DNA of 32,000 nucleotides, from positions 60,001 to 92,000 of the forward strand of contig NZ_OMOH01000005.1 in the NCBI RefSeq assembly GCF_900289195.1, written 5' to 3'. How positions within the stretch are numbered: position 1 is the stretch's first letter; each line of letters begins with the position of its first letter. Below are positions 5,582 to 32,000 of the stretch, in pieces. The notes below the pieces were generated by a model. The model searched no databases and was not told where the DNA came from. It saw only the letters and a program-made list of their open reading frames with translations. The position numbers and the translations under genes were made by a program. The stretch is from Propionibacterium ruminifibrarum (GTDB lineage Bacteria > Actinomycetota > Actinomycetes > Propionibacteriales > Propionibacteriaceae).

Positions 5582-7297
5582 TCAGATCCAGGTGCTGAAC
5601 CACATGCGCATGAGCCACTGGCGCCTGGTCATCAGGGCGTCGGTGAGGATCGGGTAGATGAAGATGAAGTTCGCCACGATGAGCACTGTCGCCGCAGTGG
5701 CGATGAACGCGCCCCGGCGGCGTCTGAGCGGCGGGGCGTCCGCCGGCCCGAGGATGCGCCCGAGCACCAGGGCCAGCACGGTGGCGGTGAACGGGATGAG
5801 CATGATCGCGTAGAAGAAGAACGTGGGGCGATCCGAGCTGGGGAACCACATCAGCCAGGTGGCCGCGGCGGCGACGATCGGCACGCAGTAGTTCCACTGG
5901 CGCCCCCCGATCCAGAAGAACAGGCCTGCGATGACGGCCAGGCACGCGAACCACCACAGGAAGGGGGTGCCGGCGCCGGAGATGACCCGCAGGCAGGTGT
6001 CGTCGACCGCGGTGCAGCCGTCCTCGCCGGGCTGGATGCCGTTGACCGCATCGATGCCGATGACGCGCGCCATGATCGGCCAGCCGGCCGGTTTCGCGTC
6101 GTACGTGTGGGTCTGCTCGGCGATCCAGTCACCGGTGTGGAAGGCGTAGATGTCGTAGTGGTAGTGCACCAGGCTGCCGAGGGCCGGGCCCAGCGCCCTG
6201 GTGAGGAGGTCGTCCGGGTGCTGGGCGCCCCACTGGCGGTCGTAGCCTCCGTCGGTGAGCAGCCAGCTCGTCCACGTCGCCACGTAGACGACGAGCGCCC
6301 CGACGACGAGATAGCAGAAGGCTGCCAGACCGTCGCGCACCAGACTGCGGACCGCCGAACGGCCCGCGCCGGCCATCAGGCGTGCCCGGTAGTCGTGGAC
6401 GAGGCTGAGGATGCCGAAGACGGCGAGGACGTACACGGCGTTCCACTTGCAGCCGCAGGCCGCACCGAAGAGCAGGCCGCTCGCCAGCCGCCAGGGCCGC
6501 CACAGCAGCAGCGGGCCGTACCCGCCTCCCAGGTTGAGCAGGTTGTTGGCACGCAGATGATCGGCCAGCCTGTGCCGGAACCAGTCGCGGTCGGCTAGCC
6601 AGCAGCCGACCGCCGCGACGGTGAAGAAGGCCTCGAAGATGTCGAGCAGCGCGATGCGGCTCAGCACGAAGCTCAGGCCGTCGACGGTGATGAACAGGCC
6701 AGCCATGGCACCCACCAGCGTGGACCGGCCCAGCCGGCGGGCCATGCGTACGACGGCGCCGATCAGCAGGCAGCCGAAGACCAGGGAGGCGAACCGCCAC
6801 CCGAAGGGCGTCATGCCGAACAGCTGCTCGCCGCTCGCGATGAGCCACTTGCCGAGCTGGGGGTGCACGATGAACGAGGGCGTGCTCGACCAGCCGTCCA
6901 CGACCCCTGCGGCGATCTGGTCGTTGGCGTCCTGCCCCCAGGTGCCCTCATAGCCCAGGTGCAGCAGCGTCCAGGCGTCCTTGGCGTAGTAGGTCTCGTC
7001 GAACTCGATGTACGCCGGTCGCCCGATGTTGACGACACGGATGGCGAAGCCGAGGGCGACCAGGACAACGGTCACCAGCCAGCTCCGCGCCTCGTCGAGT
7101 GCGAGGACGGCTGCCTCGTCCAGGCGTTCGATGGTGGAGGGCAGCACCGGGCGCAGGCCATCGCCGTGCCGGGGGGTGCTCGCCATGGCCGGGACCGGGA
7201 GTGAACTCACACGCTCCATGTTAAACGCCGGCCCCATGGGCGAGAGGAACCCTGAGTCGGCGTCACCGGACGTCCCCATTCCCGGCCGGGTGCGCAC
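5582..7297 (-). CDS. pmt: dolichyl/polyprenyl-phosphate-mannose--protein mannosyltransferase (GT39, Pmt)
   Basis: This 571-aa polytopic protein contains the N-terminal loop FDETYYAKDAW (the GT39 DE motif region), followed by multiple TM helices and a C-terminal PMT_4TMC-like end. Its position next to rsmI is conserved in Actinobacteria (Rv1002c/Rv1003). The start codon is uncertain because several in-frame Met codons occur. Confidence 0.85.
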   Translation of the reverse strand: MRTRPGMGTSGDADSGFLSPMGPAFNMERVSSLPVPAMASTPRHGDGLRPVLPSTIERLDEAAVLALDEARSWLVTVVLVALGFAIRVVNIGRPAYIEFDETYYAKDAWTLLHLGYEGTWGQDANDQIAAGVVDGWSSTPSFIVHPQLGKWLIASGEQLFGMTPFGWRFASLVFGCLLIGAVVRMARRLGRSTLVGAMAGLFITVDGLSFVLSRIALLDIFEAFFTVAAVGCWLADRDWFRHRLADHLRANNLLNLGGGYGPLLLWRPWRLASGLLFGAACGCKWNAVYVLAVFGILSLVHDYRARLMAGAGRSAVRSLVRDGLAAFCYLVVGALVVYVATWTSWLLTDGGYDRQWGAQHPDDLLTRALGPALGSLVHYHYDIYAFHTGDWIAEQTHTYDAKPAGWPIMARVIGIDAVNGIQPGEDGCTAVDDTCLRVISGAGTPFLWWFACLAVIAGLFFWIGGRQWNYCVPIVAAAATWLMWFPSSDRPTFFFYAIMLIPFTATVLALVLGRILGPADAPPLRRRRGAFIATAATVLIVANFIFIYPILTDALMTRRQWLMRMWFSTWI

Positions 7298-7395: not shown

Positions 7396-9777
7396 ATGCT
7401 GCGACACCGGATCATTCTCGACGGGCCGGCCACGAACCCCCGCGACGCCTTCCTGCTCGGCAACGGGCGGTTCGGTGCCGTCGCGCACGGCGGCATCGGC
7501 GCCGAGACCTTCGACCTGTCGCTCGACACCCTGTGGTCAGGCGGCCCCGTGCCACAGGCGGCGGACGATGGGCACCCTGACACGGCGATGCTCCTGCCGT
7601 CCCTGCGCGCCGCGATCGCCTCGGGCGATCTCGCCCTGGCCGGCGAGATCGTCGACCGGATGAGTGTCACACCAGCCGTCCAGACCAGCCAGCCCATCGG
7701 CACGCTCCGCTGGGAGTACGCGACCAGCCTTCGCACCCGCGGCTACAGCCGCGAACTCGACACCCAGACCGCCACCATGGCCACCACGGTGCGCGGCAAT
7801 GAACTGCGTACCTTCGTCAGCGCCCCCGCCGACGTGCTCGTCGCCGAGTGGAACGGTGCGGCGGGCGCCCTCAACGTGCCGAACCTGCGCAGCCCCCACC
7901 ACGGCAGCGTCCGAACCTGGCGTGAGGGTGAGGTGCTGTGGTTCGTCTTCTCAGCCCGCGTGCCCGTGGACGCCCGCGCCGGTGAACCCGTCCGCTACGG
8001 CACGGAGGCACCGGGGCCAGGGGGGAGCGTTCCGGCGGGCATGGCCTTCGCCGTCGCGGCCGCCGTCCAGCCGGTCGCCACGGGCTCGCGGCTGGTCGTT
8101 GCGGCCGAGAGCGGTTTCATCGCCTGGAACCGGCGCCCCTCCGGCGACACGTCCACGGCCGAACACATCGCCCGATACCGGGTGCGCAGTGCGCTGAGCC
8201 GCAGCACCGACGAGCTCCACGCCGAGCACGTCGCCGACTACCGCGCCCTGTTCGACCGCAGCGACCTGGACCTGTCGGAGTCCTGGCGCGGCGCCGAGGA
8301 CGAACTGGCCTTCCACCTGGGCAAGTACCTGCTCATCTCCGCCTCACGGGCGGGCTCGCAGCCCGTGCACGCCCAGGGCCTGTGGAACGCCCACGCCCGC
8401 CCGGCCGGCGAGGCCTACCGCGCCGACATGAGCCTGCAGATGAGCTACTGGGCGGCCGAGCGGCTCGGGCTGCCCGAGTGCACGGCACCGCTGCGCCGCA
8501 TGACGACCGAGCTGACCCAGACCGGCCGCGACCACGCCTGGAGGGACTTCGGTTTCTCCGGGGCCGTCGCATTCGAGAGCATCGACCTGTGGCGTGCATC
8601 CAGCACTCGCCTGTCCGACACGGGGCGGGCCTACTGGCTGGGAGCGCTGCCGAGCCTGGCGGCCGGGCTGCACGAGCACGCCCTGTTCACCGGCGACACC
8701 GCCAACGCCCTGTCCGTGCACCGCGTGGCCGCCCGCTTCGCCCTCGACCTGCTCGTCTCGGGTCCCGACGGCGACCTCGTCGCCAGTCCCTCGGCCACGC
8801 CCGGCGGCCGGTCCGGGGCCGACCCGGGCGGCGTCGTCGTGGCGGCCGGCTCGACCATCGACCGCGAGATCATCGTCGAGGTCTTCGAGCACTACCTCGC
8901 CCTGGTCGGCGACCAGCCGCGCGGCACGGACGTGGCGCTCGTCGGGCAGGTGCGCAGCGCCCTCACCCACCTGGCCCCGGTCCCCGTCGCCGACGGCGTC
9001 ATCACCGAATGGGGTGAGCGCCTGACCGGCGGGCGGGACGGCTCTGGTGCGCTGTCGCACCTGTACGGCCTCTTCCCGGGCAGACGCATCAACCACACCG
9101 GCCCCGAGATGCTCGATGCGGCGCGGGCCACCCTCCAGAGGGCGATCGAACGCGGCGCCGGCCGGACCGCCGCAGGCCAGGCCTGGATCCTCGCCATGGC
9201 CGCCCGGCTGGGTGACGGCCCCCTGGCCGGACGATCCCTGGAACGACTGACCGGGCCGCTCAGCTCGTCGTCCCTGCTGGCACTGGGCCGCGGCTCCCAG
9301 ACGCCCGGCACCGTCATCCAGCTGCCGGCCTCCCTGGCGCTGCCCGGGGCCCTCGCCGAGATGCTCGTCGGCTACGACGCCGGCGCCATCCGCCTGCTCG
9401 CCGCCCTGCCCGACCGGTGGCCGAAGGGCACCGCCCGCGGCCTGCGCACTGTCGGCGGGCACCGCGTCGACGTCACCTGGGACGAGGGCCAGCTCACCAG
9501 CGCGCGGATCAGGCCCAACTTCGGCTGCCGGATGCAGGTCGAGGCGGAGAACGGCCGCTTCACCATCACCGACGACGCCGGGGCGGCCGTCCAGTTCGCC
9601 CAGGTCACGGCCTGGAACCGCAACCGCAACCTGCTCAGCTTCCAGGTCGACGACGACCACAGCTACCTCATCACCCGCGAGGGCAGGGCCCGTCGCGGGG
9701 AACTGGCCGCCGGCGCGCCCGCCGTCAGCCTCGGCCCCGGCCTGTCAATGACCCTCTCAGGGCTCCCCACTGTGTGA
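7396..9777 (+). CDS. glycoside hydrolase family 95 (alpha-L-fucosidase-like), no signal peptide
   Basis: This is a 793-aa ORF. The RBS AGGAGGA (7381-7387) precedes the ATG at 7396. The N-terminal FLLGNGRFGAVAHGGIGAETFDLSLDTLWSGGP is the typical GH95 N-domain opening (LGNGRLGAM..G....E.I.LNE.TLWSG.P). The length fits the family. Confidence 0.8.
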   Translation: MLRHRIILDGPATNPRDAFLLGNGRFGAVAHGGIGAETFDLSLDTLWSGGPVPQAADDGHPDTAMLLPSLRAAIASGDLALAGEIVDRMSVTPAVQTSQPIGTLRWEYATSLRTRGYSRELDTQTATMATTVRGNELRTFVSAPADVLVAEWNGAAGALNVPNLRSPHHGSVRTWREGEVLWFVFSARVPVDARAGEPVRYGTEAPGPGGSVPAGMAFAVAAAVQPVATGSRLVVAAESGFIAWNRRPSGDTSTAEHIARYRVRSALSRSTDELHAEHVADYRALFDRSDLDLSESWRGAEDELAFHLGKYLLISASRAGSQPVHAQGLWNAHARPAGEAYRADMSLQMSYWAAERLGLPECTAPLRRMTTELTQTGRDHAWRDFGFSGAVAFESIDLWRASSTRLSDTGRAYWLGALPSLAAGLHEHALFTGDTANALSVHRVAARFALDLLVSGPDGDLVASPSATPGGRSGADPGGVVVAAGSTIDREIIVEVFEHYLALVGDQPRGTDVALVGQVRSALTHLAPVPVADGVITEWGERLTGGRDGSGALSHLYGLFPGRRINHTGPEMLDAARATLQRAIERGAGRTAAGQAWILAMAARLGDGPLAGRSLERLTGPLSSSSLLALGRGSQTPGTVIQLPASLALPGALAEMLVGYDAGAIRLLAALPDRWPKGTARGLRTVGGHRVDVTWDEGQLTSARIRPNFGCRMQVEAENGRFTITDDAGAAVQFAQVTAWNRNRNLLSFQVDDDHSYLITREGRARRGELAAGAPAVSLGPGLSMTLSGLPTV

Positions 9778-11575
9778 TTGATGTTTTGGACCTCTGCCAT
9801 GGCGCACCAGGACAACTCAATGGCCGCGTGACATTGACGCCAGCGATTCTGAGTCGTGGTGCACATTTTTATGAGTGGCGTTGAACTTCGCCACAGTCGG
9901 GTGTGCTGGGAGGAAGCAGGTTCATACCCCTGATAGCACCCTGAGATGTGAAGAATTGGCAGGAATTCAACTTTCTCCATGGCCTAGCGTCAGAGTTGTC
10001 TGTGCATCCGGTTGCATTGGCTGGAAAGGGTTGGCATGAATGTCAAGTTGAGAAGTGTTTCTGAAGCTGCTGATCTCATGGATTCCGATCCAGTGAGAGA
10101 ATTTCTTGTGGGATTTGATAATGGCCATGAAAAGGATTTAAGGAAAGGAAATTCTAATAGGACAGGGCTTGAAAAAATAGCAGCCCATGAAGGATTGGAA
10201 AGATGGAAGAAGGGCCACCCCAGGGTAGTGGCCTGGCTGACCCTTGTCTCTGCAGTGGTAACGCTTTTCTTGGTGGGTGGATTTGCCTGCGAAGTCTTTG
10301 TTAATTCACGATCTTCGGTTCCTGTGATTGTTGCGTGGGAACTTCTGATGATCCTCATTACTTGTACTTCTTTTTTACTGGTCTACCATGGTTTTCATGG
10401 TAGGCAAGTTCTTGCGGAGAGGGCTATGCGGTGCGTGGCGTCTCTCGCGAGATTCGTGGGTACCTTCCTTCAAATTCCACTGATGCTCTTTTCCTTGAGT
10501 ATGCTCGTGCTGCTCATTATCGCAGTTTATCAAGCGTATCCTGGTCGGGATTTACTGAGGCACATCAACTCACTCCTCATTGCGCTGCTCCTTACTTATT
10601 TTGGCCTGGGGTCTGCGGCTTTTTTGTATTATTCAAGAACTCAACTGGATTTCGGATTGAGGAGGCCGCATGTCATGCGACTGAGGCTTCTGATTGCAGT
10701 TTTTGGGAACTGCCTGTGGGCTCTCTTTGTAATTTCTTTCACACTCTTTGGGGTGCTCGCTGTCAGGAAATTAAAATCTTCAGATCATTCGCTGAAACTA
10801 AGCCTTGGTGGTCTTGTTTTTGATGTGTTTGATGTCTTTGTTGGCGTTGTGGTGTCAGGGGTATTGGCGGCTGTCATTCCCGTTTGGAAAACCCATGGAC
10901 GTGTCATGGGTGATGCCGTGGTGGTAATTGAGAGAGTTTTGATACTTATTCGAAAGGTGAAAACTGGTGATGATTGGAGGATGCTTGGGGTTGGGGATCT
11001 GGAAGCTATATATCTGGTGCTTGATCTGGAGAGGGTCTTGGGGGAAAACCTGTGTCCACAGTGGTGCCCACTCCGTTTCTCGATTGAATCCTTCAATTAC
11101 AGGACAATTCTTTGTCGAGAGGTGATGTTAATTCTTGGTGTTCGTTATCGCACTGTGGTTCCACAATTCGAATCGAAAAATTGGCTTCTGGAGAGATATG
11201 GTATCGAGCTGGGTGGATCTATTGCTGGTGTGGATGAATTGGTGAGAGAGCTGGAGCTGTTGAGAGACCAGCTCAAGGTGCGGACTTGGAGACCTTTTGT
11301 CAATAGTTGATAACAGTGTCAATGATAGATGTGTGATTGGTTTGGTCTGATGGAGATGAATATCATCTGTTGATGAAAATTGCCAAGCTCTGACATGATC
11401 CTTGGCTCTGGTTTCCGTGATAGAAGTCAGTGGTGACTTTTGCTCAGGCGATCGGTTGTGAGTCAATTTTCTTGCGCCAAGGGCTGGTGGACACAAGTTG
11501 AAGAAAACTTTTTTGCTGATCTATCCTTAATTTCGTGGATCATGAGGATACCAGGCAACCCATGAATGATTTCAG
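9778..11575. other. low-GC island (foreign-looking DNA) between GH95 and rsmI
   Basis: I counted GC by hand on 60-nt lines. Values are 38% (10081-10140), 45% (10261-10320), 40% (10321-10380), 45% (11521-11580) and 52-57% (9781-9900). The flanks give 78% at 9661-9720 and similarly high values from 11581 onward. The left edge coincides with the GH95 stop codon. The right edge falls within the first ~40 nt of the rsmI ORF. Confidence 0.85.
10036..11310 (+). CDS. hypothetical polytopic membrane protein (about 6 TM), no recognisable family
   Basis: This is the only long ORF in the island (track ORF 10012-11310, which starts at a TTG). I prefer the ATG at 10036, which is preceded by GAAAGGG (10024-10030). 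Predicted layout is a ~65-aa polar N-terminus, six hydrophobic segments (VVAWLTLVSAVVTLFLVGGFA, VPVIVAWELLMILITCTSFLLVY, FLQIPLMLFSLSMLVLLIIAVY, INSLLIALLLTYFGLGSAAFLYY, LLIAVFGNCLWALFVISFTLFGVLAV, LVFDVFDVFVGVVVSGVLAAVIPVW) and a ~135-aa soluble C-terminus ending in a coiled-coil-like ELVRELELLRDQLKV. Codon usage is AT-rich, unlike all neighbouring genes. Confidence 0.6.
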   Translation: MNVKLRSVSEAADLMDSDPVREFLVGFDNGHEKDLRKGNSNRTGLEKIAAHEGLERWKKGHPRVVAWLTLVSAVVTLFLVGGFACEVFVNSRSSVPVIVAWELLMILITCTSFLLVYHGFHGRQVLAERAMRCVASLARFVGTFLQIPLMLFSLSMLVLLIIAVYQAYPGRDLLRHINSLLIALLLTYFGLGSAAFLYYSRTQLDFGLRRPHVMRLRLLIAVFGNCLWALFVISFTLFGVLAVRKLKSSDHSLKLSLGGLVFDVFDVFVGVVVSGVLAAVIPVWKTHGRVMGDAVVVIERVLILIRKVKTGDDWRMLGVGDLEAIYLVLDLERVLGENLCPQWCPLRFSIESFNYRTILCREVMLILGVRYRTVVPQFESKNWLLERYGIELGGSIAGVDELVRELELLRDQLKVRTWRPFVNS

Positions 11576-12443
11576 GTCCGGCGGAAGTGTCGGACGTCTC
11601 GCCGGGCCGGGCACCCTCGTCCTGGCGGGGACGCCCATCGGCGACTCCACCCAGGTCTCCCCGCAGCTGCGCCGGGCGTTCGCCGAGGCCGACGTCATCG
11701 CCGCCGAGGACACCCGCCTGCTGCGCACCCTGCTGGCCCGCGCCGACGTCGAGACGAGTGCCCGCATCGTCAGCTACTTCGAGGGCAACGAGACCGAGCG
11801 CACCCCGCGCCTGATCGACGAACTGCGCGACGGCGCGGTCGTCGTCGTGGCCACCGATGCCGGCATGCCGTCGATCTCCGACCCCGGGTTCCGGCTCGTG
11901 CGGGCGGCCATCGAGGCCGGGCTGCGGGTGACGAGCGTGCCCGGGCCCTCGGCGGTGACGACCGCGCTGGCCGTCTCGGGGCTGCCCTGCGACCGGTTCT
12001 GTTTCGAGGGTTTCCTGCCGCGCGCCGCCGGCCAGCGGCGCCGCAGGCTGGCCGCCCTCGCCGGGGAGGAACGCACGATGGTCTTCTTCGAGGCCCCGCA
12101 CCGGCTCGCCGACTTCCTGGGCGACGCGGCGGCGGCCTTCGGCGACGACCGTCCTGGCGTGCTGTGCCGCGAACTCACCAAACCGTGGGAGGAGGTCATC
12201 CGGGGGTCCCTGTCCCAGCTGCGCGACTGGGCGGCAGAGCACGCCCGCGGCGAGACGACACTCGTCATCGCAGGCCGCACGGCAGACCCCGGCAGCGGCA
12301 TGGCCGAGGCCCTCGGCCAGGTCGACGAGCTGATCGGGTCGGGGGAGCGCCTCAGCCGGGCCGTCGCCCGGGTCGCCGAGGCGACCGGTGTCCGCAGGAA
12401 GGACCTGTACCAGGCCGCCCTCGCCGCCCGGGACGAGCCCTGA
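11535..12443 (+). CDS. rsmI: 16S rRNA (cytidine1402-2'-O)-methyltransferase RsmI
   Basis: The sequence LVLAGTPIGDSTQVSPQLRRAFAEADVIAAEDTRLLRTLL...MPSISDPGFRLV...PGPSAVTTAL is the tetrapyrrole-methylase-fold RsmI signature. The start is either GTG at 11535 or the in-frame ATG at 11562, and both lie in AT-rich island DNA. Confidence 0.9.
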   Translation: MDHEDTRQPMNDFRSGGSVGRLAGPGTLVLAGTPIGDSTQVSPQLRRAFAEADVIAAEDTRLLRTLLARADVETSARIVSYFEGNETERTPRLIDELRDGAVVVVATDAGMPSISDPGFRLVRAAIEAGLRVTSVPGPSAVTTALAVSGLPCDRFCFEGFLPRAAGQRRRRLAALAGEERTMVFFEAPHRLADFLGDAAAAFGDDRPGVLCRELTKPWEEVIRGSLSQLRDWAAEHARGETTLVIAGRTADPGSGMAEALGQVDELIGSGERLSRAVARVAEATGVRRKDLYQAALAARDEP

Positions 12444-19017: not shown

Positions 19018-19096
19018 TCCCTGGTTGGTCTGCCGGTAGGGCCCGCCTGACTTTGAATCAGGATTAGCGACGCAGGTTCGACTCCTGCCCAGGGAG
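19018..19096 (+). tRNA. tRNA-Gln (anticodon UUG)
   Basis: The acceptor stem is TCCCTGG (19018-19024) paired with CCAGGGA (19089-19095), with discriminator G at 19096. The anticodon stem CCTGA/TCAGG carries the loop CTTTGAA (TTG at 19053-19055). The T arm is GCAGG-TTCGACT-CCTGC (19072-19088). U1:A72 plus G73 fits Gln identity. No CCA is encoded. My hand fold leaves a 9-nt variable region and an imperfect D stem, so the exact geometry needs a covariance-model check. Confidence 0.8.
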
Positions 19097-19231
19097 CGCG
19101 ATGGCGTTCCGCCCCTGGCACGTGCCGGACAGGACGCCTGGCAGCTGGTGCGGCCGCAAGGTCGTGGCAGTTCGTGCGGCCGCCCGGCCGCTCGTGAGGA
19201 ATCAAGGACCGAAGGGCTCCCAGGAGGAATC

Positions 19232-29500: not shown

Positions 29501-30130
29501 CAGTCGGGGCACATCGCCGACGTCGGCTTCGACCTGTACCTGCGCCTGGTGGGTGAGGCCGTCGCGGAGTTCAAGGCCGGCGGACCGGTCGAGACCGAGC
29601 AGGCGATGCGCATCGAACTGCCCATCGACGCCCACCTCCCCGTCGACTACGTCGACTCCGAGCGCCTGCGGCTGGACATCTACAAACGCATCGCCGAGGT
29701 CCGCTCCGCCGAGGACATCGCGGCCCTGCGCGCCGAACTCGTCGACCGCTACGGACCGCTGCCGCGCCAGGGCGAGCTGCTGCTCACCGTCGCGGCCTTC
29801 CGGCTGTTGTGCCGCAGCGTCGGGATCACCGAGGTGATGGCCCAGGGCAACCAGATCCGCTTCGCCCCGCTGGTGGGGCGCCACGGGCCCGACGGCAGCG
29901 AGCTCGCCCTGCCCGACAGCCGCCGGGTGCGGCTCGAGCGCCTCTACCCGGGGACGGTCATCAAGCACGCGTCCAACATGCTGCTCGTCCCCGCCCCCAG
30001 GACCGCTCCGATCGGCGGGCGCATGGTCGACGACGAGGAACTCATCGCCTGGGCCACCGGTTTCGTCACCGCGATCTTCGCCCCCGACGAGCCGCGCGCC
30101 GCTGTCGGGTCTGTCAGAGGAACGGTGTAA
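26510..30130 (+). CDS. mfd: transcription-repair coupling factor
   Basis: This is a 1206-aa ORF. It has a CarD-like domain ([14 protein letters not shown]), helicase motifs ([49 protein letters not shown]) and a TRCF C-terminal domain. Confidence 0.95.
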
Positions 30131-30509
30131 GTGGCCCGATTGCCCGTTGGGGCAGAGAAGCCATGTTGACCGAGATCGCTACCGGCGCTGTCGAGCTCGT
30201 CGAGGGATTAGCCGGAGAGGATACCGTGCTCGAGCAGCTTCATCCTCATCACCTGAGTTGGCCGAGTTGGATAAGGCCCAGCGAGAGACGATTGCCGAGC
30301 TGGTGCGTCAGTGGCAAGGACGCTGGTATGGTCTTTACCGGTCCCGGGCGGGCTGTATGCAGGCGTTGACCGCTCAAGTGGTTGAGGCCACCTCGGGCGT
30401 GTTTGAAAGTACTGTGTTAAGGGTGTGCTTGTGAGTGTGTCGGTGTTGGTTGGGGGGCTCCCGTCTGGACGGGTTTGGTGTCGAATCGCTCCTATCTTCA
30501 CCGGGAGGG

Positions 30510-30857
30510 TTATTCAAAACTGTTTTTGTAGAATTCTGGTGCGATGATTGCTGTGATGGTTTGTGGGAGGGTGTGGATGGGCCTGCGGTAGCCGGTGTGG
30601 AGTGTCTTCCAGGTTTTCAGGTGGGCGATTGCTCGTTCGACTGGGGCTCGTAATGAATTGGTGGCGTGGTTGTATTGTTTCTGCCAGTCTGTGAGCTCGC
30701 CGCCTAGTGGTTTGCGTATCGGGGTTGTCATGCCCAGCCCGGTGTAGCCCTTGTCACCCAGTGGTGGGGTGTCCGGGAAGCCGTCAAGAAAACCCGTGGA
30801 TTGGATGGCTTTCGCGTCGTGGGTCGATCCGGGGGGTGTCCCTATGTTTCTTGTCAA
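30510..30857 (-). pseudogene. C-terminal fragment of a DDE_Tnp_4 (Harbinger/PIF-like, IS5-type) transposase
   Basis: PPGSTHDAKAIQSTGFLDGF...LGDKGYTGLGMTTPIRKP.GGELTDWQKQYNHATNSLRAPVERAIAHLKTWKTL matches the distal part of that family (PGSxHD ... DxGY ... N...S..R..VE..ia.LK.W.iL). The N-terminal half carrying the first catalytic Asp is absent. The fragment starts (TTG) exactly where the IS110 transposase ORF ends. Confidence 0.7.
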
Positions 30858-32000
30858 GCGGCGAGGGGTGTTGGGGCTGGTTTGGGTGTCTGGTAGGTTT
30901 CTTGGTTCTTGATCATGGCGAACAAGACGTCACAGCGGCGGCGGGATAGACAGATCAGGGCTGCGTTGTGTTTTTTGCCTTGGGCTCGTTTGCGGTCGTA
31001 GTAGGCCCGTGAGACGGGGTCTGCTCTCAGCGCGGCGAAGGCTGACAGGAACAGGGCTCGTTTGAGGTGTTTGTTGCCTGACCGGGCGGGGAACTCGCCG
31101 CGGATACTGGTCCCTGAACGACGGGTGATGGGGGCGAGTCCGGCGTAGGCGGCAAGGTGTCCAGCGGTCGGGAACTGTGAGGCGTCACCGACGTCGAGCA
31201 GGATCCGCGCTGCGGTCCTGACCCCGACGCCTGGCATCGAGATCAGGACCTCGGCAAGAGGGTGAGCATCAACAACCTTCTCGACCTGGCTGGCGAGCTC
31301 GGCCCGCTGGTCCAGGACCTGGCGCAGGGATGCCGCCAACTTGGGTAGGACCTGCTCGGCTGCAGCCGTCCCGGCGACGACAACGGTCTGTTCTGCCAGC
31401 GCTGTGGTGATCGCGTTGGCGAAGTCGGCCGCGCCGCGCGGGTTGGCCTTGTTGATCACTCGAAGCATGCGGCTTTTCGACGCGGCTGTCATGCCTTGAG
31501 GCCCGCCGAGTTGCTCGATGACGGCCAGGCCTTGCTTGGTGGCCAGCCTGGGCCCGATGACGCGTTCTAGTGCGGGATGGATTTGTGTCAGCAGGCCGCG
31601 GATACGGTTCGACAAGCGAGTCGCTTCGGCGGCGAGGTCCTCGTCAAAGCCGACCAGTACCTTCAACTCCGCCAAAGTGTCCTCACCGGCATCGACGCGA
31701 CGTAGTGTGTGGGGCATGCTCCGGGCGGTCTCGGCGATGACGAACGCGTCACGGGCATCGGTCTTCACGTTGCCTGGGTAGAGGTCGGCTGCGCGGCGCA
31801 TCGCCAGCCCTGGAAGATAGGCGACAGTGATGCCCATCGACCTGGCGACCGCGATTGGTAACGCGCCGATCGTGTTGGGCTGATCAACGATCACCAACAT
31901 CTGGCCAAGGCCCTCAAGGCGGGTGAACAGTTCCTCCAAGCGCTTCTGGTCTTGTGGCAGGGGCTTGTCGAACACTCGTCTGCCAGCAGCATCCAGAGCG
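30854..32000 (-). mobile_element. IS110-family insertion sequence; transposase ORF, N-terminus beyond the window edge
   Basis: The minus-strand frame stays open past the listed Met to the window edge (..ALDAAGRRVFDKPLPQ..). VIVDQPNTIGALP...KTDARDAFVIAE is the DEDD_Tnp_IS110 domain. MPGVGVRTAARILLDVGDASQFPTAGHLAAYAGLAPITRRSGTSIRGEFPARSGNKHLKRALFLSAF...YYDRKRAQGKKHNAALICLSRRR is the Transposase_20 domain. Confidence 0.9.

Follow-up and report, generated by a model that had tools for sequence, protein, structure and literature searches.

Replacement flexible genomic islands (rfGIs) are regions that occupy a fixed slot between core genes and in which strains of one species carry very different versions. 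The classic examples, O-antigen and capsule loci, encode cell-envelope products within multi-gene glycan clusters; identical versions appear in different clonal backgrounds, peaks of single nucleotide polymorphisms (SNPs) are described at the boundaries, the guanine-plus-cytosine (GC) content is atypically low, and exchange is ascribed to recombination between homologous flanks (Lopez-Perez, Martin-Cuadrado and Rodriguez-Valera, PMC4033161). Here we describe a locus in the actinobacterium Propionibacterium ruminifibrarum that resembles these islands on a minimal scale. The stretch of DNA analysed, hereafter the window, comprises 32,000 nucleotides (RefSeq assembly GCF_900289195.1, contig NZ_OMOH01000005.1, positions 60,001 to 92,000), and the segment under study, hereafter the island, occupies positions 9778-11575 between a glycoside hydrolase gene (GH95) and rsmI. 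We propose that the island is probably a single-gene, replacement-type flexible genomic islet that is polymorphic through homologous recombination and kept by selection acting at the membrane.

Other described systems share parts of this pattern. The staphylococcal agr groups contain a bounded hypervariable agrB-agrD-agrC segment in which a variable membrane/sensor part is joined to a conserved cytoplasmic C-terminal part, and discrete classes coexist. AT-rich DNA is a known target of Lsr2 in high-GC Actinobacteria, and the xenogeneic islands bound by Lsr2 or CgpS are usually prophages, biosynthetic clusters or virulence loci. Single-gene membrane proteins of abortive infection and superinfection exclusion, together with orphan bacteriocin-immunity proteins, are small and polytopic, vary in presence between strains, diverge quickly, are low in GC and often have no homologues.

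The island has a GC content of 46.8%, against 70.1% across the remaining window. In 300-nt windows its mean is 0.465, compared with a background of 0.702 ± 0.042 (minimum 0.567; z = -5.7), and along the sequence the GC fraction falls from 0.73-0.77 to 0.45-0.49 over approximately 9780-11580 and then returns to 0.75. The tetranucleotide L1 distance between island and background is 0.91, while other 1.8-kb windows give 0.23 ± 0.05. The left edge is the stop codon of the GH95 open reading frame (ORF), and strain-to-strain divergence begins at position 9771, the third base of the second-to-last GH95 sense codon. The right edge lies within rsmI, whose ATG is at 11562 and whose conserved block starts at 11598, with the first 12 codons belonging to the island. 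A first-pass annotation of the window had reported the low GC content and had placed the edges at the GH95 stop and inside the first codons of rsmI; the computed GC and tetranucleotide deviation bear out the former, and alignment between strains the latter. It had also described a single orphan ORF flanked by approximately 250 and 220 nt of non-coding DNA. One conserved ORF of 424 aa is indeed the content of the island and the left-hand estimate holds (258 nt), whereas the right-hand side is longer than estimated (251 nt). As that annotation had stated, no integrase, transposase, tRNA or terminal repeats were found in the window's copy, and no flanking or attachment-site direct repeats were found at the island; in the vehicle genes, tRNA and direct or terminal inverted repeats not found at 9778-11575, the island differs from a classical mobile island or integrative element. 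The neighbouring genes pmt, GH95, rsmI, tatD and ksgA were confirmed with Pfam.

Sites without the island are present both in sister taxa and within the species. In Propionibacterium australiense (contig L008) and a further relative (L088), whose RsmI proteins are 87% and 81% identical, respectively, the gene order is pmt-GH95-rsmI with a GC-rich spacer of 71-100 nt and no island. Conspecific contigs were gathered by exact-protein look-ups, and in three that were recovered with the window's Pmt protein, and so carry an identical Pmt (L172, L175 and L176), GH95 is followed by 57 GC-rich nt and then by rsmI. This conspecific spacer is orthologous to the P. australiense spacer, with which it has the sequence GGCTATCGTCGT(G/A)CAGGTGAACGAGAAGACG in common, and the empty form is therefore ancestral. 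The empty sites in all five contigs support the claim that the island is an insertion into a conserved locus. To judge from these alignments, it replaced the spacer of approximately 57 nt between GH95 and rsmI together with the first rsmI codons, and the present rsmI start codon and first 12 codons are island DNA. Because the same junctions are found in all alleles, and both arms are homologous right up to them, a single ancestral insertion appears probable.

The interval into which the island inserted had been given as pmt-rsmI. Among the matches listed, pmt and rsmI are indeed direct divergent neighbours, without GH95, in more distant Propionibacteriaceae, but the island itself lies between GH95 and rsmI, GH95 being an older insertion. 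The latter is lineage-specific, present between pmt and rsmI in P. ruminifibrarum, P. australiense and L088 and absent in more distant relatives (L009-L065). Since GH95 also inserted there, the pmt/rsmI intergenic slot has been hit at least twice.

The window ORF is 100% identical to the hypothetical protein PROPJV5_1493 of P. ruminifibrarum, and only two other related protein clusters were found, both in the same GH95-rsmI slot on rumen-type metagenome contigs and metagenome-assembled genomes (MAGs). We refer to the window's allele as A, to that of L007 as B, to that of L001-L006 as C and to that of L187 as A'. Within one species, then, the slot is polymorphic: it is either empty or filled by one of at least four haplotypes (A, A', B and C). 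Every allele is bounded by the stop codon of GH95 on the left and by codon 12 of rsmI on the right, and all have a GC content of 44-46%.

The alleles differ far more than the DNA around them. Between A, B and C the island ORF proteins are 47-59% identical, against 100% for Pmt, 99.0-99.4% for GH95 and 100% for RsmI within the species (window versus the allele-C strain), and Pmt remains 100% identical across strains with different island alleles or none. By the Nei-Gojobori method, synonymous divergence (dS) between alleles of the ORF is 0.6-2.0, compared with 0.02-0.04 for GH95 and 0 for pmt within the species; the corresponding nonsynonymous values (dN) are 0.27-0.42 for the ORF and 0.003-0.005 for GH95. 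The flanks of the window and of P. australiense differ by a dS of 0.23-0.33 and a dN of 0.05-0.08, so divergence between alleles within the species exceeds divergence of the flanks between species. Haplotype A' is closer to A: in the 3' arm the two differ at 14 out of 229 positions (6.1%), and in 7.8 kb of flank at 0.21%.

Allele C carries an additional element in its 5' arm, an IS5-family insertion of 911 bp (L001 8963-9873) with 23-nt terminal inverted repeats and a 254-aa DDE_Tnp_1/DDE_Tnp_4 transposase. This transposase was considered as the island's vehicle and ruled out: it is present in allele C only, lies inside the 5' arm and is bounded by its own 23-nt inverted repeats.

The distribution of differences points to exchange of whole alleles through the flanks. 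The density of SNPs in GH95 stays at 0-2 per 100 nt until the final 100 nt, where it reaches 5-12; in the right flank, the window and the allele-C strain are identical for 1.7 kb from 11598 onwards. Identical alleles are found in different backgrounds. L179 matches allele A over the entire 1.83-kb island while its flanks differ from those of the window at 21 sites, and L170 has an identical left end of allele C (208 nt shared) while its flanks differ at 23 sites, the adjacent GH95 carrying 11 SNPs. Divergence of the island does not follow that of the flank: the respective values are 0% and 0.28% for L179, 6.1% and 0.21% for L187, and approximately 50% and 0.3% for L001. Moreover, the closest pair differs by region: allele C groups with B in the island (dS 0.70) but with A in GH95 (dS 0.019). 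Because the island and flank trees disagree, identical alleles occupy different backgrounds and divergence is decoupled, this pattern indicates that old alleles have been shuffled by homologous recombination rather than generated by local hypermutation.

Several haplotypes also appear to meet in the same environment. Contigs L170, L175, L176, L187 and L189, from several metagenomes, end at the island edges or within approximately 200 nt of them, and in SRR7110455 a contig ending in an empty-type rsmI start overlaps another that starts at window position 11594. Individual rumen samples thus appear to harbour several haplotypes side by side, which would split the assembly graph, and the polymorphic slot accounts for assemblies that break between GH95 and rsmI. 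The island is also of practical use for marking strains of P. ruminifibrarum in metagenomes from the rumen.

The reading frame is open over 412-428 aa in all three full alleles (an upstream ATG is also open in allele C), and dN/dS lies between 0.2 and 0.47 in every comparison and region. The intact frame and these ratios show that the ORF is a functional protein-coding gene under purifying selection. Hydropathy and the positive-inside rule predict a protein with both termini inside, six transmembrane helices and short outer loops. The predicted cytoplasmic C-domain is by far the most conserved part, with 67-71% identity to the window allele (alignment A6) and a mean column identity of 84%, while nucleotide identity between alleles in the membrane part is 45-65%. 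Conserved polar residues comprise E102 and N225 in the membrane part and the motifs AER..RC and RRP..MR in cytoplasmic loops. AlphaFold2 gave an uninformative model at full length (predicted local distance difference test, pLDDT, 48.7) and, for the C-domain, a helical bundle of low confidence (pLDDT 63). Comparison of the predicted structures with PDB and BFVD by Foldseek returned generic helical bundles only, at E≥0.4, and nothing was inferred from them.

No homologue outside the species was found in a profile search of 5.8 billion clusters or in exhaustive phmmer/HMMER searches of 1.84 billion representatives, and the ORF had no match by tblastn against phages, by blastn against plasmids or in a viral-contig scan. 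A word-indexed search with a profile of the 140-aa C-domain also gave no match at E≤1, but it missed the source proteins too, which marks a limitation of the tool and is not evidence. The orphan status claimed in the first-pass annotation is upheld, since BLAST-type and profile searches matched only conspecific alleles; the foreign donor that it assumed did not emerge, no low-GC donor being found among the same clusters and representatives or among phages, plasmids and viral contigs. The protein family is therefore new and species-restricted, without relatives among approximately 15 billion catalogued proteins, while the hypervariable recombining envelope locus is already well known as a pattern.

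The non-coding arms yielded little. They contain no Rfam match, no terminator and only three weak promoter-like sites, RNA folding gave no excess structure (z = -0.53), and no conserved small ORF, such as a peptide precursor, is common to the alleles.

These observations are consistent with a model in which a low-GC cassette, consisting of the 5' arm, the membrane-protein gene and the 3' arm, inserted once and the slot was then held as an old polymorphism of the ancestral empty form and haplotypes A, A', B and C. The alleles would have moved among near-identical strains by homologous recombination in the GH95 and rsmI flanks. Within the protein, the conserved cytoplasmic helical C-domain may be the working or output part and the variable membrane and outward-facing part the recognition part. 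The likeliest force retaining several forms and the null would be negative frequency-dependent selection at the membrane, with phage or membrane-targeting bacteriocins as the putative pressure; the protein could be a target that is varied or lost, or else an exclusion or immunity factor. Composition, boundaries, empty sites, the series of alleles, purifying selection, the conflict between trees and the predicted topology are results of the analysis, while the single origin, the balancing selection and the link to phage or bacteriocins are what we infer. The parts of this model differ in strength. As an evolutionary description, a one-gene cassette in a fixed slot, with an ancestral null and several old alleles shuffled by recombination, is very likely to be correct. 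An interplay with phage or membrane-active bacteriocins as the functional class is a tentative suggestion with somewhat less than an even chance.

Several points weigh against the model. No phage, bacteriocin or defence genes lie near the island, and the ORF has no Pfam, PADLOC, PHROG, NCBIfam or PDB match: PADLOC returned 0 families at E≤1, and the lone match in PHROGs was a holin model at E = 0.27 with one allele. Since the predicted outward loops are short (11-31 aa), the membrane part could vary so much simply because hydrophobic helices are weakly constrained, without any diversifying selection; dS is saturated, which makes dN/dS blind to positive selection. The sample amounts to about 14 independent assemblies, several of the allele-C contigs being the same clone. 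Classical replacement islands are multi-gene glycan clusters, and here there is one gene. Finally, the model gives no account of why the GC content has stayed low.

Among described systems the replacement flexible genomic island is the closest kind, and four of its five defining features are found here; for the fifth, the encoding of exposed surface structures that phages target, the candidate product is a predicted six-transmembrane protein. The likeness extends to the fixed slot between core genes with very different versions in strains of one species, identical versions in different clonal backgrounds, SNP peaks at the boundary, an atypically low GC content, probable exchange through the flanks and a product predicted to belong to the cell envelope. 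The islet differs in being a single gene rather than a glycan cluster, in having alleles that are mutually homologous rather than unrelated gene sets, in the segregation of a null form, and in its 70% GC actinobacterial host, against which the GC content drops by approximately 23 points over the whole segment and approximately 46 points at third positions. In a high-GC actinobacterium of the rumen, it appears to represent the replacement type of hypervariable locus reduced to one gene. It offers a clean system for the role of a species-restricted orphan membrane protein, for the maintenance of deep alleles and a null in a gut commensal, with phage, bacteriocin or host pressure as candidates, and for the lack of drift towards host GC.

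The remaining systems are more distant. With the agr groups the island shares a hypervariable segment in conserved flanks, a variable membrane part joined to a conserved cytoplasmic C-terminal part, and discrete allele classes; however, it has no histidine-kinase or HATPase Pfam match, no conserved peptide-precursor ORF in the arms and no partner genes, and it is not a member of that group. It resembles the Lsr2/CgpS-bound islands as a short, AT-rich, acquired-looking segment in a high-GC actinobacterium, and differs from them as a multi-allelic single-gene slot. The membrane proteins of abortive infection, superinfection exclusion and bacteriocin immunity are alike in evolutionary pattern alone: the island gene has no PADLOC or PHROG match and no prophage, bacteriocin or defence-island context. 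A diversity-generating retroelement would bring a reverse transcriptase (RT) domain and an internal repeat pair, neither of which was found, and divergence in the island is decoupled from that of the flanks.

The first-pass annotation had viewed the segment as horizontally acquired AT-rich DNA of the kind bound by Lsr2-type silencers, with an orphan ORF as its cargo. On this view it would be a one-off island, kept silent by such a silencer and selectively neutral in its cargo. The strongly atypical composition, the empty sites in sister taxa and the lack of a homologue elsewhere all agree with this view, as does the affinity of Lsr2 for AT-rich DNA. It would nevertheless not predict four haplotypes and a null in near-identical backgrounds, and no donor was found. 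A neutral cargo also sits poorly with an ORF that has stayed intact past more than one substitution per synonymous site at a dN/dS of 0.2-0.47. Inert acquired cargo thus gives way to presence/absence and multi-allelic polymorphism within the species and a gene under purifying selection, and we regard the one-off view as unlikely. Silencing by Lsr2 is a separate matter; it is plausible and would be compatible with the recombining islet.

The low GC content itself has persisted. GC at third codon positions (GC3) is 44-46% in the three alleles against approximately 92% in neighbouring genes; at these positions C makes up approximately 15% in the island and 55-60% in the neighbours, and T approximately 35% and 4%, respectively. 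The 3' arm has the same skew, with G exceeding C and T exceeding A. When changes were polarised on the three-allele tree, the ORF showed 221 from GC to AT and 244 from AT to GC, and the C-domain with the 3' arm 119 and 105; between A and A' the counts were 4 and 10. By these counts the cassette, having accumulated more than one substitution per synonymous site, is close to a compositional equilibrium of approximately 46% GC, with at most a slight upward drift. The shared junctions imply that the alleles diverged at this locus in 70% GC genomes; if so, they have not simply ameliorated to host composition. Possible reasons are that AT-richness is selected, for example to bind a silencer or to keep expression low; that the segment escapes GC-biased gene conversion, the allele classes being unable to recombine together; and that the alleles diverged in unsampled hosts. 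A broader version of the first two holds that these 1.8 kb have their own compositional equilibrium, through escape from gene conversion or through AT-richness selected for binding of a silencer to the gene of a potentially toxic membrane protein, so that the boundaries of GC and of divergence would be cause and effect rather than a donor relic. We consider this a long shot. If true, it would make the cassette a natural experiment on what holds the GC content of a high-GC genome high.

The alleles differ as much as orthologues from different genera, and approximately 46% GC is within the range of common low-GC rumen bacteria. Both facts would suit repeated, independent acquisition of diverged family members from low-GC rumen organisms by landing at a specific site. 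Such landing is at odds with the lack of an integrase, attachment-site repeat or tRNA at the site, and with identical junctions and arms homologous to both junctions in all alleles. Furthermore, no homologue from outside Propionibacterium was found despite heavy sampling of the rumen in databases, and the sole transposase lies inside the allele C island and is absent from A and B. Repeated acquisition is accordingly improbable.

Local AT-biased hypermutation would have the merit of explaining low GC and strain divergence by one mechanism with sharp common boundaries, and the depletion of C (15%) and enrichment of T (35%) at third positions of the coding strand, with the same skew in the 3' arm, speak for it. 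Its prediction that island divergence should scale with flank divergence fails, however, as does agreement of the island and flank trees, and allele C is unchanged over the 208 nt shared with L170 even though the neighbouring GH95 has 11 SNPs. Once polarised, the substitutions are evenly split or favour GC (221 versus 244; 4 versus 10), and the region contains no reverse transcriptase and no template/variable repeat pair. We therefore give hypermutation very little weight. An assembly or contamination artefact in the form of a chimeric contig, for which only the abrupt change in composition speaks, can be dismissed, since the same junctions recur in the NCBI P. ruminifibrarum record and in independent ENA, JGI, NCBI MAG and Logan assemblies.

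Table 1. Coordinates of the island, its predicted protein regions and the flanking genes in the window.
Feature	Position	Strand	Basis and remarks
pmt, protein O-mannosyltransferase	5582..7237	-	Pfam PMT, PMT_2, PMT_4TMC; left-hand conserved core gene
GH95 glycoside hydrolase, left flank of the island	7396..9777	+	Pfam GH95 domains; last two codons and stop at divergence boundary 9771-9777
5' non-coding arm, 258 nt	9778..10035	+	homologous and strongly diverged among alleles; sliding identity 26-59%
Orphan ORF, 424 aa	10036..11310	+	frame open in all three full alleles
N-terminal cytoplasmic segment, predicted	aa 1-63, nt 10036-10224	+	hydropathy, positive-inside
Six transmembrane helices, predicted	aa 64-284, nt 10225-10887	+	hydropathy
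Cytoplasmic helical C-domain (~140 aa), predicted	aa 285-424, nt 10888-11307	+	hydropathy; conservation
3' non-coding arm, 251 nt	11311..11561	+	identity 48-88% among alleles; now the DNA upstream of the rsmI operon
rsmI first 12 codons, island-encoded	11562..11597	+	low GC, allele-specific; GC-rich and different in the empty-site strain
rsmI remainder (16S rRNA 2'-O-methyltransferase), conserved right flank	11598..12443	+	Pfam TP_methylase and RsmI_C

A different origin of the right arm and first 12 rsmI codons, as ancestral sequence shifted towards AT, was suggested by the motif CTATC..TCGTG and an equal N-terminal length. The alignment scores are marginal, being reached by 18, 8 and 28 of 1000 shuffles, and significant homology to the empty site is limited to the final 11-12 nt, and this in alleles B and C. 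This candidate was dropped, as the match is confined to the 11-15 nt adjoining the conserved block.

Just upstream of rsmI, the motif CTATCCTTAATTTCGTGGATCATGAGGATA (window 11535-11561; homologous in L001 and L007) barely varies between alleles that have diverged elsewhere. For the rsmI-tatD-ksgA-ispE operon it may act as the new promoter or as the region where translation is initiated. Near the rsmI start there is also an in-frame GTG (MDHED...) that is open in alleles A and C, and not in B.

In the comparison of the window with L179 (MAG GCA_040307615.1), 10 of the 21 differences fall within 55 nt inside GH95 (8338-8392). The cluster may mark either the import of a very short tract by recombination or a misassembly at this point. 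L001, L004 and L005 are 100% identical in DNA and differ in their gene calls, with lengths of 371 or 395 aa for a DUF2330 protein, 316 or 327 aa for tatD and 317 or 328 aa for ispE; these are differences between gene callers, not biology.

Elsewhere in the window, the sole tRNA is a tRNA-Gln (anticodon TTG) at 19018-19097, which lies 7.4 kb away and has no connection with the island. A truncated copy of the IS5-family element of allele C, 91.5% identical and encoding a 115-aa DDE fragment, lies on the minus strand at 30505-30857, just downstream of mfd. The adjoining gene, for an IS110-family transposase (373 aa; 30854-31975), overlaps the DDE fragment by 4 nt (30854-30857). This IS5-family fragment and IS110-family gene account for the window's second, milder dip in GC content (57-63% GC at 30000-31500).

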